DNA from: Centroscyllium fabricii
Taxonomy: Eukaryota
DNA: 64,000 nucleotides
Direction: 5' to 3'
Assembly: GCA_051313645.2 (NCBI GenBank)
Contig: JBNRSN020000016.1
Coordinates: 92,814,001 to 92,878,000 of the forward strand
The notes below the pieces were generated by a model. That model saw only the letters and a list, made by a program, of their open reading frames with translations. It did no database searches and was not told where the DNA came from. The position numbers and the translations under genes were made by a program. Shown in pieces: positions 5,366-36,786 of this stretch (the first letter of the stretch is position 1; every line of letters begins with the position of its first letter).

Positions 5366-5682
5366 TGTGGGGAACTGAAGGTTTCCCACTTTTAAATATC
5401 AAAGAATTAGAGGTAAACAGCGGAGTAAACTGGACATGTTTTTATTCATTAACAGCTACAACGAACTACAGCTGGTGGCGCCAAACGGCAGGAAACCATG
5501 TGACCCGTGAGTGACAGCGCTATGGGCCTATTAGGTTCCGTGCCCGTTGATTCGATGGGCCAATTTGGCAACGGGGGCGGGACCAACCTACCAAAGGGGC
5601 TTCTGTCTTAAAGGGAGGTCGGCTGTCCCAGGCTACTGCCTTAAAGGGAGACAGGCGTGCCTCCCTGGGTAGTTACACTACA
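5366..5682 (-). repeat. Gypsy 3' LTR (317 bp)
   Basis: Direct repeat of 9500-10092. Preceded on the minus strand by the purine tract GAGGATTCTGGGGGGGCGTG. Confidence 0.95.
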
Positions 5683-8600
5683 CACGCCCCCCCAGAATCC
5701 TCAAACACGTGGTATGTTAACCGCTGAGGAGGGACGACACAGCGACCGGAGCGGGTGTGGTAAGGCGCACGTGCGGAGGGCAAGACAAGAGGGTTGTCGA
5801 CTGGACCCGGCGACCACGGTGCTGCAGGGGCCGGGGGAGGCGAGGCAGGTGGATCGCCCGTGGGACTGAAAGGCGATAGCGCCGTAGGTGCCCGAGGAAG
5901 CAAGGTTGGAGGCGAGGCGAGCAGAGGAGCCGCACCCGGGGGCGTGACAACTAAGGTGTCAACCGGGGGCTCGCTAAAGAAAAAGACGGGCTCCTGATTA
6001 GGAGCGGGAAAATGATGCTCCTGTGAGGTGGGGTCCAAATGAGCCGGTTTGAGGTGGTCAATGGACACACGGTCCTGCCGGTCCCCGACCTCAAGGAGAA
6101 AAGACTTGTCCCCAGCCTGCAAAACTCGAAAAGGGCCCATGTACGGTGCCTGTAAAGACGATCTGTGGGTGTCACGATGCACAAAGACAAATTGAGCCCG
6201 GTGGAGCTCGTTGGGGACATGAGACGGTTGCGCGCCATGCCGAGAGGTAGGCACTGGGAGGAAACGAAGCACCGCGTCATTATGCCGGGCAAGTTGCTCC
6301 CTGGCGGACCAGTGTTCCGTGGTGGAGCGGAGAAATTCCCCAGGGATGCGTAGGGGCTGTCCAAAAACAAGTTCGGCAGACGAAGTGCCGAGGCCGTCTT
6401 TGGGGGCCGAGCGCAGACCAAGCAAGACCCAAGGGAGCCTGTCTAGCCAATTCGCGTCCACCAGGCTAGCCCTGAGCGAGGCCTTGAGGGCGCGGTGAAA
6501 GCATTCACAAATGCCGTTGGCCTGCGGGTGATATGCAGTGGTGCGGTGCACCTGTGTACCCAAGTTGGCGGCCATGGCATTCCAGAGCTGGGAAGTGAAT
6601 TGCGGGCCCCTGTCGGAAGTAATGTCTGACGGTACGCCGAACCGGGCTACCCAAGAAAAAATGAAGGCACGTGCCAAGTCAGCTGCCGTGGTGGAGGCTA
6701 AGGGGACAACCTCTGCCCACCTCGTGGTGCGGTCGACGACCGTAATAAGATGGGTGAAACCCTGTGACGGGTGCAATGGGCCGACCAGGTCCACGTGGAC
6801 ATGGTCGAAGCGCCGTTCAGGTACAGAAAAATCGTGCAAAGGGGCCTTAGTGTGTTTATGAATCTTCGCGCGCTGACAGGCTTGACAGGTGTTGGTCCAG
6901 TCACGCACATCCTTGTGTAACCCGGGCCAAACAAATTTGGTTGACATGAGCTTCTGTGAAGCTCACATACCAGGGTGCGAGAGAACGTGGACCAAGTCAA
7001 AAATGCGTCTACGCCAGGAGGCGGGTACTAAGGGCCTAGGTGTGGGCACGGACACGTCACACAAAAGTGTGGTGCCCGCAGTGTGAAAATGGACATCAGC
7101 CAACTGGAGGCTGGTGGATGCGGAACGGAGAGCTTGCAGATCTGTGGCCTGCCACTGAGCATGTGCCATTTCGGCATAGTCGACGCCCACGTGCACTGCC
7201 TGTAGGGAAGGATGAGAGAGGCAGTCTGCCACGACATTGTCCTTGCCAGACACGTGGCGGATATCAGTGGTGAATTCTGACACGAAGTTTAAATGACGCT
7301 GTTGCCGTCCGGACCAAGGCTCTGCAACCTTGGACATCGCGAAAGCGAGGGGCTTATGGTCTACATAGGCTGTAAAAGGACGACCCTCTAAAAGAAAGCG
7401 GAAATGGCGCACAGCGAGAAAAAGAGCTAACCGTTCCCTGTCAAAGGTATTGTATGAGAGTTCATTTTTCCTCAACTGCCGGCTAAAAAAGGCTAGGGGC
7501 TGCCAACAACCGTCCACCCACTGCTGCTGAACGGCGCCAATTGCGTAATCGGAGGCATCCGTTGTCAGCGACAGTGGGGCATCTGGAACGGGGTGAACCA
7601 GTAAGCTGGCCTCCGACAGGGCCGCCTTAGCCAGGCAGAAAGCCTGAACCATGTCGGCGGACCACTGGAGAGGATCCTTTCTGGTCTTACCCCTAGTAGC
7701 CTCATAAAGGGGGCGCATGATGAAGGCTGCCCGGGGAATAAACCTGTGGTAGAAATTAACCATCCCCAGGAATTCCTGGAGGGACTAAACCACCTTAGGT
7801 TGGGGGAAATCCGCAACCGCCTGTACCTTGGAGCGCAAGGGAATAGCTCCCACCGGGGAGATATAGTGTCCCAGGAAATCGATTGTAGGGAGGCCGAATT
7901 GGCACTTGGTAGGGTTGACAATCATGGCCCATGCTGGGCCAATTGTTGAAGAGAGAGCGCAGGTGTAGCACATGTTGAGACTCGCTCGCGCTTACAAGTA
8001 AAATATCGTCCAGGTATACAAACAAAAAATCTAAGTCTCTCAAAACAGTGTCCATCAGTCGCTGAAAAGCTTGCGCTGCGTTCTTCAGTCCAAAAGGCAT
8101 GCGTAGAAACTCGTACAGTCCAAATGGTGTAATGACAGCAGTTTTTTGGATGTCATCAGAGTGGACGGGGACCTGGTGGTACCCATGCACGAGGTCAACC
8201 TTGGAAAAAATGGTGGTGCCAGCCAAACGGGCCAAGAAATCCTGGATGTGGGGTACTGGGTACCTGTCCGGTGTGGTAGCCTCATTGAGGCATCGATAGT
8301 CCCCGCACGGTCGCCAACCTCCTCCGGGTTTGGGGACAATATGGAGCGGGGATGACCACGGGCTGTTGGAAGGCCTAACGATGCCGAACTTCTGCATTGC
8401 TGAAAATTCCTGTTTGGCTACGGCCAACTTGGTAGGGTCGAGGCGTCTGGCTTGTGCGAAGACTGGCGGACCGGTGGTCAAAATATGGTGCAAAACGCCG
8501 TGCTTAGTAGCTCCTTCCGAGAAAGTCGGTTGTGTGATGACGGGGAATTCGGCCAGGAGGCTTGTGTACTTATCGCTGGGCGGCGGGGAGCAAGAGCTCA

Positions 8601-9499
8601 CGAGTGGGCCATCGCTACTCTGACGGGAGCGATGTGAAAATGGATGCATCCATCAGGCGCTTGCCGCGGACGTCGACCAATAGGCCGTGTGCACAGAGGA
8701 AGTCTGCCCCCAATAATGAGTGTGCAACATTTGCAATAACGAAGTCCCATGTGAAGCGTTGTTCGCCTTTCATAATTTCTGCCCGCCTCTTGCCAAACGG
8801 GGTGATGGACGCGCCATTGACTGCAACGAGGGGTGGGCCCGTGTGGCCAGACCGTCGTTCGGTACGCGTGGCCGGTAAAATGCTAAGTTGGGCCCCAGTG
8901 TCGCAGAGAAATTTGCGGTTTGATAAAACGTCGGTGAGGTAGAGTAGGCGGCCTACTGTGCCTATGGCATTAGCAGCAGCTGGATCCTGGCGACGTTGCG
9001 GTTTAGGAGAGCATGGTTTACGTCGGCTCTCCTTGTTGTCAAAGGCACAGGGTGTTCGACAGCGGTTGGCCTTCGCACTGAAGCGCGCATGATAGAAGCA
9101 GAGCTCTGGTTGCGGGCGGGGCGTTGGCTACTGTGCAGGAGTTGGGGGCTTTGCGGTGGCACACTTGGAGGGTGCGCATTGACATACCCGATCCGCTGCG
9201 CCTGCCAGTTCTGCGTAGTCATCGTTGTGAACGTTTGCCAACGCAGATTGCACGGGTTGGGGCAGTAAGCTGACGAAGAGTGCCCGGAATAAAGGGCAGT
9301 TTCTGTGGTCGCCCAGCAGGGCAAGCATGGTCGAAGAATCGCCTAACATCGGGAGTTCCAGTAGTTGTCGGGCCCGAACGGCCTCAGGTAGGTCGTGGGC
9401 CTGCAGCAAACATTTGTTAAGGGTGGCGTACCTGTCAACTGTTGGCGGGTCGCGAAGCAGGTCGATGATGTCGGCAGCCACATGACTCGGTCGGGCCGC
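5673..9499 (-). pseudogene. Gypsy gag-pol with several frameshifts and a deleted gag N-terminus
   Basis: ORF segments 9128-9499 (gag), ~8620-9110 (CHCC box and protease), 7795-8649 (RT), 6963-7763 (RNase H) and 5673-6947 (integrase, with its stop inside the LTR). Confidence 0.9.
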
Positions 9500-9893
9500 A
9501 ACTGAATGTTTCCCACTTTTAAATATCAAAGAATTAGAGGTAAACAGTGGAGTAAACTGGAACACGTCTTTATTCATTAACAACTACAATGAACTACTGC
9601 TGGTGGTGCCAAACGGCAGGATACCATGAGTGACAGGGCCACTGGCAAGGCTTGGAAGCTAAGCAGAGCCAGGCCTGGTTAGTACTTGGAGGGGCGACCA
9701 CCAGGGAATACCAGGTGCAGAAGGTCACGAAAGGAGCCCCGGGGAGGGGCGGTTGGCTGAAGATTGTCGGAATGATGGAAAGATGGAATGGCGGCGCGCA
9801 CAGACGCAGCGGCTTTGCTGGACTCTTGGGAGCTTGCAAGATCACATTTCGTTGTTCATGTACTTGTACATTGTATAATGACAATAAAGTTGA

Positions 9894-9925
<32 letters not shown>

Positions 9926-10092
9926 GGGCCTATTAAGGTCTGTGCCCGTTGATTCTATGGGCCAATGTGGCCAATGTGGCAATGGGGGCGGGACCAACCT
10001 ACCAAAGGGATTCTGTCTTAAAGGGAGGTCGGCTGTCCCAGGCTACTGCCTTAAAGGGAGACAGGCATGCCTCCCTGGGTAGTTACGCTACA
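9500..10092 (-). repeat. Gypsy 5' LTR, lacking its inner 7 bp and interrupted by a SINE
   Basis: Aligns to 5373-5682 apart from an insert at ~9633-9925 and small indels. Confidence 0.93.
9633..9925 (+). mobile_element. 5S rRNA-derived SINE (SINE3 type), copy 1, 5'-truncated
   Basis: GGAAGCTAAGCAGAGCCAGGCCTGGTTAGTACTTGGAGGGGCGACCACCAGGGAATACCAGGTGC corresponds to the 5S box A/IE/box C region. Then a unique body and the tail ...TGTATAATGACAATAAAGTTGA(ATT)n. Confidence 0.9.
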
Positions 10093-10386
10093 CAAGGTCC
10101 GCTTGCTGTCATCATGGCTGCGGATACCAGTGTTGAAAGGGGCTTCCAGGGTGACACAGCAGTCCAGCAATCTGCCCTCCAACAGATTACTAGGATTGCT
10201 GAGGCACCATCCTGGGAGAGTAGGAATGGCAGTAGCTCCGTGGAGCATGAACCTGTTGTCCTCTCTCAGGGTGACAGCATTTGTCCTCCCAGCCCTGCCA
10301 ATCTGCCAGTGCCCTTGCTGTTGCCTGTCAGCCACCCAGCCCAGACTGCTGCCGCCCATGCTGAGATGGTGCAGTCCGAAGCTGGG

Positions 10387-34490: not shown

Positions 34491-35169
34491 CTGTAAATAA
34501 TAACGAGTTCTTATAATTGGTATTGTTCGCCATTACCGAGCCCATTCTTACTCAGAGACACACGCTGAAATTCAACTTTGTTATGGAATCGTTACCAATT
34601 ATACGACTTAAAGGATACAGTGACCCGCGTATAATATATGGTAAGTGTTATCTTATTACACAGGTCTTCTTTTGCCATCTAATAGTTATTGGAAAAAGTT
34701 ATTGTAATCAAATTATAAATTATCTTTTAAACTGGTGCTGAAGATCAGTTTAGAATAAATGCAATTTTGACCATCAAAAAATCATTATCCCAGGACTTTG
34801 ATTGCGCTTTGTAGGAGTTATATCTTGTATTTAGTTACAGTCGAGCAATAGTACTTTTTGTGAGCAGGATGTACAAATCTCTAGGTATCGATTTAAAAAG
34901 ATGGAGAAATGGCTTTTGTGTAGATATTACCAGCAAATAAAATTAATTCGGAAGAGTATGGGTCCCTTTGGAGATCGTCAGTGAGTTAATCTTTCCTTTT
35001 AAATTTGAAGTTTTAAAAAAAGGCCCAACTGTTAAGGCTGCTAATACAATATTATTCACAGATTATTTATTTTGTGCATTAAGTTGCTCCTTCTCTTTGG
35101 AAATGGTGCAGGGTGTTCTCACAGTCTGGCTGGAGCGTGTTTTTGTGATTGCAGTGAAGAGCTCTGTAC

Positions 35170-36187
35170 CTGTTACCGTGGGTTCTGCTGTCTGAGCCCG
35201 CTCCTCGCCTCCTCTCACTGTACAAAATGCGGGGACACCGGCAGCCGGGGCTGCCTGGCCAGCGCTGAGTCCGAGGAAGTGGTTGGAATTGATTAAAGCC
35301 AGCGGGTGGTGGGAAAAGGTTCGGTTTGTCCAGTTCTGAAATTTGCCCATGGGGCAGGCGAAGAGTCTGTGCTGGCTCAGAAGGGACGAGGCGGTAGGCC
35401 CGGCAGGAGGACTGCTCATCTGCGGGGATTTGCGGGGATTGTCCGGTGTGGTGGCGGTTTCCGCCAGAGACCAGATCTTCGGCTTCTGGCTGATCGGGAG
35501 GCTGCTCTCGGGCGCGGGGGAGACGGGGCTTTTCCGCTCGGCGTTGCTTTTGGTGTGATCACCACTGGCCTGTGCTGAAATCTCGGGCGGAAGGTCGCCC
35601 CGTTTGTCTTCAATCACTCGGCTCTCTTTGACCACCGATTTCAGAAAACCGTCCTCGGAACCGTTCAAGTCATCAAAAGTGTCGGAGATTTCCGAATCAC
35701 TTCTGCCGTCGAGTTTGCAGTCCAAGTTTAAGTCCGGGTCGTGGTCGTCTTCGTCCTCTTTGCTCTCGATATTCTCCGTATCGATATTTTCTAAATCGAT
35801 CTCCTCGTCGTCGTCCTTTTTCTCGCCTTCCATGTCCGGGTCGCTTCCATACGAATTGCCCTCTTCGTCGGTGCGGTTCCTGGGAGTCCAGGTCATCTTG
35901 TTCTCCTTTTTAAGCCTTCTCCGGGCGTTGGCGAACCAGGTCGACACCTGGGTCAGGGTCATTTTGGTGATAATGGCCAGCATGATCTTCTCGCCTTTGG
36001 TGGGGTACGGGTTTTTCCGGTGCTCGTTGAGCCAGGCTTTCAAGGTGCTGGTACTTTCCCGGGTGGCGTTCTTCGGCCTGGACGGGTCCCCGAACTGGTA
36101 TTGGCCATAAGGGTAATAGGCGGCGTGGTGGTGGGGGAAGGCAGGGTGCTGCACGCCGGGGCTGTCCTTCAGCTCGTACTGGGCACC
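35170..36187 (-). CDS. irx3: Iroquois homeobox 3, exon 2 (TALE homeodomain, acidic region, IRO box)
   Basis: TGCAG acceptor then [11 protein letters not shown]. Homeodomain [59 protein letters not shown] and IRO box [12 protein letters not shown]. Donor AG|GTACAG, phase 1. Confidence 0.97.
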
Positions 36188-36786
36188 CTGCACAAGAGCA
36201 GAAAACCAAGGGCGAAAGTGGTCACTTAACAACAAAAAATAGTCAAAATGAAGTGCAATTATTATTTGAATTGTGTTCTGCACAGCTACATGATCCGTTC
36301 ACTTTCAAACTACAAAAACACACGAATGCTGTGAGGGAGGGGGAGGGGGGGTTGCTAACCAAATTTTTTTTGGATTTTTTTTTTGAGGGGGGGGGGGGGG
36401 GGGTGGGGGTGGGGGAGAGAAAGTTTTAAGAGTTTCAAACTGGCCAGAAACAAAACAAAAAATGAAACTGCCACCAAAAAAAAATCTGCAAGTGAAATTG
36501 ACCAGGAAGCTGGAGCGAAACTGACACACGCGACCCAGAAACAGTCTGAAAACTTTTTTCGGGAGAAAAGTCGACAGGACAAAATAAAAGCGGCATTTAC
36601 TGCAGCGGCCAACATCTCTTCCTCCTCAACTCCGCGTCTTGTTCTGATAATCGCAACAAACTTCACCCCCCACCCCCCCCGCAACACACAAACCTCCCCC
36701 CCCCCCCCCCCAACCACCACCACCTTTTTAATGATTTACCGGATGAAAGGGACCAGGAGAGAGCGAATTGACGTAAATGTTCTTAC

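Follow-up and report, generated by a model that had tools for sequence, protein, structure and literature searches.

A 64,000-nucleotide stretch of DNA, referred to here as the window, contains three closely similar short repeats with a 5S-like head and a LINE-like tail, and the question raised by the locus is from which parts this element was assembled and by which machinery it is copied. The three copies were recovered at the positions given in the earlier note (Table 1), with pairwise identities of 91.5–93.7% and E values of ~1e-110 or lower. Their sequences bear out the common tail in all three, and the extension of this tail as (ATT)n is present in copies 1 and 2, as had been claimed. Full-length copies start with AGCCCTG (copy 2 at 53037 on the minus strand and copy 3 at 56072), and divergence from the family majority is 1.1% for copy 1, 2.9% for copy 2, and 2.2% for copy 3.

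Table 1. Positions of the SINE copies, their parts, and one empty insertion site in the window
Feature	Position	Strand	Remarks
SINE copy 1	9633..9925	+	5′-truncated by ~23 nt; box C region full-length; (ATT)n tail; within Gypsy-type LTR
SINE copy 2	52750..53037	-	full length; 10-nt box C deletion; possible 3–4-nt duplication; within old repeat
SINE copy 3	56072..56355	+	full length; 10-nt box C deletion; expanded A-run; antisense within CR1-type RT region
Sister LTR with empty insertion site of copy 1	5441..5560	+	
Non-5S 5′ hairpin, copy 3	56073..56100	+	12-bp predicted stem; defined 5′ end of full-length copies
5S-derived part (5S nt 44–117), copy 1	9651..9724	+	alignment to the genome's own 5S genes (L061–L072)
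Box A, copy 1	9657–9671	+	
Intermediate element, copy 1	9674–9679	+	
Box C, copy 1	9687–9704	+	4 changes relative to own 5S gene
Middle segment, copy 1	9725..9786	+	no convincing match to LINE or ORF-less elements
LINE 5′-end piece, copy 1	9787..9818	+	matches extreme 5′ end/first ORF codons of APE-RT-ALKBH8_N LINEs and ORF-less two-ended elements
LINE-derived 3′ tail, copy 1	9814..9896	+	predicted stem-loop before ACAATAAA; first bases TTTGC overlap end of 5′ piece
(ATT)n terminal repeat, copy 1	9897..9925	+	last TAT common with target

The earlier note placed each copy in a different older element, and this holds in outline. The host of copy 1 is a Gypsy-type element with LTRs that are 87% alike; the copy occupies one of them, and the other, its sister LTR, retains the empty site. 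Copy 3 sits in the RT region of an element that we take, from an RT motif, to be CR1-type; 20 alignments cross its empty site, with 69–80% identity in the 8 inspected. The host of copy 2 is an old repeat with five matches (four at 63–65% and one short match at 83%), and its description as a tRNA SINE comes from degenerate A and B boxes only, ARAGORN having found 0 tRNA genes in it. Since the copies interrupt older elements, as seen from the empty sites and host repeats, each insertion is later than its host. Comparison with the sister LTR confirms the junction microhomologies of copy 1 (ACAG at the 5′ side and TAT at the 3′ side), with the loss of 3 target bases, and the microhomology of copy 3 is a 5-nt ATTAT overlap with the target at the tail. 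The statement that no copy has a clear target-site duplication needs the qualification that copy 2 may carry one of 3–4 nt, copy 1 instead showing the loss of target bases just described. The window also holds three features of separate interest: the Gypsy-type element itself (5373–10094), whose minus-strand frames for RT, RNase H, and integrase are broken; a 184-nt MITE-like inverted-repeat element (53085–53267) that adjoins copy 2 and has relatives in L123/L124; and a TALE-type homeobox open frame (35063–36298, minus strand; Homeobox_KN, E 2.5e-18).

The SINE3-like family is real and young. Exact matches in the genome (7.2 Gb) number 11,585 for a 29-mer of the body and 16,037 for a 23-mer of the tail, and cross-recovery of the two motifs (13/30 and 9/30) gives ~37,000–39,000 copies, an approximate figure, since each sample was drawn from the first 30 places on a single contig. 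A set of 40 evenly spaced 10-kb stretches contained a single copy, where ~2 were expected, and the window is therefore unusually dense in copies. Copies differ from the majority by a median of 2.9% (range 0.4–6.1, n = 47), in a sample of 44 copies longer than 200 nt plus the three window copies that is biased toward young copies by the requirement for an exact match. The element is ~289 nt long, non-coding, and dispersed, its composite structure is uniform across the sampled copies, and 38 of the 50 unique copies examined begin inside the first 8 nt of one defined 5′ end. Insertion occurs with short duplications or none: duplications of at least 4 nt flank 14 of 81 copies, versus 4.0 expected from shuffled pairings (maximum of 10 in 200), and 51 of the 81 have no target duplication at all. 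At least half of the sampled SINE words were present in 19 of the 24 runs listed (six organisms and a fish gut metagenome), and contigs with body or tail were abundant in two of four runs examined (278 and 705 records versus 3 and 4).

Some copies are themselves interrupted. Independent-looking insertions that begin with TGTGGTA break the head of the SINE at an identical position in L248, L251, L260, L262, and L267 (similar in L253 and L256), and the SINE resumes with a 5-nt duplication in three of them, a pattern suggestive of target preference by an LTR-like element. In L107, a SINE copy is broken by an insert of ~23 nt with complementary ends and a 4-nt duplication; the end of this insert resembles LTR-like ends that abut truncated SINE copies in L150 and L162.

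The element has a four-part anatomy consisting of a head, a middle segment, a LINE 5′-end piece, and a LINE-derived tail. The 5S internal control region reported in the earlier note is present in the head, in that 5S nt 44–117 align to the genome's own 5S genes; the assignment rests on this alignment because Rfam, run on the whole window at E ≤ 0.01, gave no family. At the box positions that we assume from knowledge of 5S genes, the majority sequence agrees with the genome's own 5S at 14/15 bases of box A, 6/6 of the intermediate element, and 16/18 of box C, the set of promoter elements expected in the head of a SINE3. The control region is not intact throughout, as copies 2 and 3 lack the same 10 nt of box C, a deletion found in 7 of 39 measurable copies; among 50 copies, 25 keep the 5S spacing in this region, 7 have the deletion, 7 have other lengths, and 11 are not measurable.

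In SINE3 elements the 5S sequence lies at the very 5′ end, whereas here the first ~40 nt consist of non-5S sequence, and 5S nt 1–43 are replaced by a hairpin segment (z = −2.8 for the fold of the equivalent segment of copy 2; 4/200 shuffles as good). The internal promoter of 5S genes sets the start site by distance. The 5′ end of the SINE lies 46 nt (copy 3) and 48 nt (copy 2) upstream of box A, compared with 49 nt in the 5S gene, a spacing consistent with a start measured from the internal promoter; were the start so determined, the hairpin would represent captured non-5S sequence at the normal start distance. The SINE3 reading of the earlier note stands, with the amendment that it had missed both this replaced 5′ head and the LINE 5′ piece in the body. 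No parent of the hairpin was found in the genome: the 25 matches with a different continuation all read as SINE variants or interrupted copies, and the SINE resumes within 1.5 kb in 16 of them. Two candidate likenesses of the head were not accepted, one to the ORF-less family described below (9/200 shuffles reach the score) and one to the antisense strand of another repeat (78% over 36 nt, E 0.1). The majority sequence is free of any run of four T. Before the stem-loop of the tail, 19 of the 47 copies (copies 2 and 3 among them) have a four-T run, which could act as a premature Pol III stop; 26 have TTTC there.

The body had been described as unique, and this does not hold for its 3′ part, which is LINE 5′-end sequence. 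SINE nt 155–184 of copy 1 are identical at 28/30 positions to the start of L175, a full-length LINE copy with two nested insertions, and the piece matches positions 4–35 of five elements, with 0/200 dinucleotide shuffles reaching the score for 5/5 targets. Against each of the five targets, none of the 200 shuffles scores as well as the LINE 5′ piece or as the tail, and both match at the extreme ends of these elements; the head and the middle segment do not stand out from the shuffles in this way. For the middle segment, no convincing match to the five LINE and ORF-less elements was obtained (5–165 of 200 shuffles reach the score), and a search of 1.29 Mb gave no non-SINE match below E 0.6; a likeness between the segment after the 5S part and the 3′ end of another repeat (14/15, E 7.9) was not accepted. 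The LINE 5′ piece adjoins the tail directly, and TTTGC is common to both pieces, an overlap that suggests a microhomology-guided deletion as judged from the sequence. With a LINE 5′ part in its body and a LINE 3′ part in its tail, the element has the construction of a bipartite-LINE SINE.

That the 5′ motif is a genuine LINE terminus was verified in the genome. The version found in the main LINE family has 33 exact matches, of which 30 were fetched; 27 of these loci lead into endonuclease sequence, with flanks that diverge after ~4 nt, and the other three are internally deleted LINE copies with tails at +138, +454, and +650. A broader form of the motif has 4,123 matches. Of the first 30 inspected, 27 are elements that lack an ORF, have a repetitive, GC-rich interior, and reach a Rex-type tail between +377 and +1034. 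The remaining three are one L225 start and two SINE copies; of 18 further motif loci (besides L225), 16 have the tail and 2 have none. Terminal repeats vary even within the ORF-less family. By the 27/30 sample this family (e.g. L144:4968-5808, L195–L224, and L226–L244) accounts for most of the 4,123 matches; its interiors are minisatellites, and it includes at least two subfamilies with different terminal repeats. In ORF-less elements (L195–L224) and in the main LINE family (L175), TCTCCC just 3′ of the 5′ motif complements GGGAG of the tail, and the SINE has lost the 5′ partner of this pair. These complementary ends may reflect pairing between the two ends of the RNA during Rex1 mobilisation. 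Median divergences of the LINE and ORF-less elements are 3.1–6.6%, overlapping the value for the SINE.

The Rex1/Babar-like character of the tail, also proposed in the earlier note, is sustained. The last 83 nt of the SINE align at 72–76% identity to the 3′ ends of LINEs that encode an RT and ALKBH8_N, with 0/200 shuffles reaching the score; as in SINE3 elements, the 3′ tail is common with a LINE. All 191 tail matches in 1.41 Mb, DNA that is enriched for these sequences, are SINE copies or Rex-type ends. The SINE tail is closest to that of the ORF-less family (52–53/69) and to one unclassified end (52/69); it agrees with the main LINE family at 43–45/69 positions and with L225 at 44/76 (69–76 columns compared). 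The local alignment of the L225 tail covers 25 nt only, with a score of 40 versus 55–63 for the others, and the terminal repeat of the main LINE family is (TTGAA)n, unlike the (ATT)n of the SINE. A 10-pair stem-loop can be predicted across eight tails, with two-sided changes in 1/10 pairs only and a fold that is no better than that of shuffles (z = −0.87). On whether the tail is preceded elsewhere by an RT ORF, similar tails do occur on the ALKBH8_N-bearing RT LINEs; no LINE with an identical tail was found, as 30/30 tail-motif loci are SINE copies, and two targeted genome patterns for an autonomous LINE with the exact tail gave one match each, both truncated SINEs.

The donor LINEs were characterized through PF09004 (ALKBH8_N), which we presumed, as a lead, to be linked to Rex1; the genome search for this domain returned 78,250 first-look candidates, of which 150 were scored. 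Of the seven LINE copies fetched, L302 is the only one with an unbroken frame, a 966-aa ORF from the first ATG with a short internal deletion in the RT; the other six are broken. Its RVT_1 (E 1e-21) and ALKBH8_N domains score over the cut-off, and Exo_endo_phos (E 2e-4) falls below it. Rex1/Babar elements encode an AP endonuclease and an RT and have a 3′ UTR followed by short tandem oligonucleotide repeats, according to excerpts of PMC4635592 and PMC6274825. L302 has this organization, with an AP endonuclease, an RT, and 5-nt terminal repeats after the 3′ UTR. L225 represents a second lineage with the same 5′ start and 51–61% amino acid identity to the first; it is broken, ends in (ATT)n, and has a TGTACTTGTACA stretch in common with the SINE tail. 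Separately, the RT of L225 (G000:C1:36683500-36690500) is 69–73% identical to teleost proteins (medaka, platyfish, and tilapia), a likeness that offers a possible lead to horizontal transfer if the host is a cartilaginous fish.

The earlier note had called for placement of the RT on a tree. In a tree of 22 rows, none of them dropped, both LINE lineages and nine teleost RT + PF09004 proteins form a 100/99 clade apart from the CR1-type rows and from two rows that we take to be RTE-type from a motif; the tree has no named Rex1, L2, or Vingi row and comes with a long-branch warning for its deep joins. An L2 row is missing because no L2-type RT frame of at least 150 aa was found in the DNA examined. 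None of the 120 listed homologues is named Rex1, and a PDB search returned only distant R2 and L1 proteins. The peptides of the Rex1 primers RTX1-F1/R3 occur in the LINEs at 7/7 and 6/7 positions (forward) and 4/7 (reverse), with a spacing of 572–578 nt, close to the Rex1 amplicon of ~550 bp given in an excerpt of PMC4635592; control RTs score 3–4/7 on these peptides, the reverse score of 4/7 also arises by chance, and the match of the primers at the DNA level is no better than background. The donor clade is likely Rex1/Babar, a label that is likely rather than proven because the comparison holds no named Rex1 or L2 sequence.

We estimate a probability of about 0.8 that the SINE is a non-autonomous element in which a 5S promoter fragment was joined to ~30 bases from the very start and ~83 from the very end of a likely Rex1/Babar LINE, and which is likely transcribed by Pol III and likely copied in trans. 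In the proposed scheme, TFIIIA and TFIIIC would act on box A, the intermediate element, and box C and would set the start 46–48 nt before box A, and Pol III would probably transcribe the element from the 5S fragment. The Rex-type LINE protein would then recognise the 3′ stem-loop and prime at a nick via the (ATT)n end, the SINE RNA probably undergoing target-primed reverse transcription in trans by the endonuclease and RT of the LINE. Recognition of a 3′ stem-loop has been demonstrated for stringent LINEs such as UnaL2 and ZfL2 (PMC5135761, in excerpt). The origin can be rationalized with the Kojima model, in which a Rex-type element would have been internally deleted across the common TTTGC and a 5S head added; the ORF-less lineage would be the most likely source of this deletion derivative because its tail is the closest to that of the SINE.

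The identity of the partner admits a variant with the same anatomy, in which the mobilising partner is not the abundant (TTGAA)n family but an L225-like Rex lineage with an (ATT)n end, either extinct or present in few copies. This is possible, though less likely than not: L225 combines the same start motif with an (ATT)n end and the stretch common to the SINE, and the tail of the abundant family is a rather distant match, but the local alignment to the L225 tail is short and low-scoring, the single L225-type copy seen is broken, and terminal repeats differ even inside the ORF-less family. Mobilisation by CR1 or L2 LINEs, as for the zebrafish SINE3, is very unlikely. CR1-type RTs are plentiful in the DNA of this genome that was examined, and vertebrate SINE3 families use the CR1 clade (PMC7245038, in excerpt); yet despite these plentiful elements, every one of the 191 tail matches in that DNA is a SINE or a Rex-type end.

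Two further explanations concern the other parts of the element. If the 5S part were a passenger, the SINE would be a non-autonomous LINE with two ends whose transcription begins at the LINE 5′ motif or depends on nearby polymerase II promoters. Such a view would accommodate the many copies in which box C has changes (2 in the majority sequence) or has lost part of its length, as well as the spread of ORF-less two-ended elements that have no small-RNA head. We regard this as unlikely, as the 38 of 50 copies with the defined end start ~175 nt upstream of the LINE motif, at a distance from box A that resembles that in 5S, copies without a head that start at the motif are rare (1/30), and box A and the intermediate element are retained. 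Hardly any weight can be given to the notion that the body match is a chance or convergent GC-rich motif in an ordinary SINE3 that borrowed only its tail; the match is indeed short (30 nt) and GC-rich, but its near identity, its fixed place at the start of five elements, its position adjoining the tail, and the shuffling results largely refute such a coincidence.

The preferred reading, a 5S fragment joined to both ends of a likely Rex1/Babar LINE, can be set against known systems. We take the LINE RSg-1 to be a Rex1/Babar element, and with that assignment a 5S head with a Rex-type tail is already known from OS-SINE1. The suggestion in the earlier note of an undescribed 5S/Rex partnership was consequently overstated: OS-SINE1 of salmon and trout pairs a 5S head with a tail in common with RSg-1 (PMC3747384 and PMC5135761, in excerpt). 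It is set apart from the present family by description, in that these excerpts list it as a DeuSINE, report no LINE 5′ piece, and place it in another host group. The other comparisons of this paragraph likewise draw on excerpts. The zebrafish SINE3 and AmnSINE1 have a 5S type-1 promoter head as here (PMC3747384), but with a CR1-4_DR-type tail and a Deu body instead of a Rex-type tail and a ~60-nt middle part. The chondrichthyan HE1, SacSINE1, and CmiSINEs are also non-autonomous SINEs with LINE-derived tails in fish but are all tRNA-headed, with HER1, CR1, or L2 tails (PMC3747384 and PMC5499810), and one tRNA SINE with a Rex1 partner is listed for a sea anemone (PMC3747384).

The closest architectural parallels are CoeSINE5 (coelacanth), SINE-1_Pmo (python), HaSE3 (moth), and Ped-1 (springhare), which combine a 5S head with 5′ and 3′ parts of one LINE clade (PMC5786205; for the 5S head of Ped-1, PMC3747384). 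Their donor is RTE, whereas here it is an APE-RT-ALKBH8_N LINE, likely Rex1/Babar; moreover, the 5′ piece here is the extreme terminus with the first ORF codons, and the first 43 nt of the 5S are replaced by a hairpin. RIME, NARTc, Bov-A, RTESINE1/2, and the Vingi derivatives consist of LINE ends without the coding middle (PMC5786205), like the ORF-less family and the last 110 nt of the SINE, the ORF-less family differing in its GC-rich minisatellite interiors and Rex-type ends. According to Kojima 2018 (PMC5786205), LINE 5′ ends in SINE bodies come from RTE and Vingi only, 5S-headed bipartite SINEs are reported for RTE only, and ORF-less bipartite LINEs come from RTE, Ingi, Vingi, and R2 only, with sampling bias left open. 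The donor here lies apart from the two RTE-type rows of the tree and so does not group with RTE, and "Rex" has 0 matches in the supplement of that paper. Neither this family nor any bipartite SINE or SINE body built from Rex1 turned up in the literature searched, which does not extend to most subscription papers or to the repeat databases. We read the family as a variation on a known design, with a likely new donor clade and a replaced 5′ end.

On balance, we lean slightly toward the broader view that two-ended ORF-less parasites also arise from Rex1/Babar, an origin so far unreported, and that this clade is the third among LINEs to give rise to a SINE body; in this genome the outcome would be thousands of headless, minisatellite-filled elements and one tiny deletion derivative with a captured, truncated 5S promoter and a new hairpin front. 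The proposed series, from a frame-open LINE through fresh internal deletions and an ORF-less family to a 5S-headed SINE, would lie within one young genome, which would make the model of SINE-body origin, and the recognition of Rex1 ends, directly testable. The replaced 5′ end would in turn provide a natural test of whether the 5S internal promoter fixes the start site by distance.
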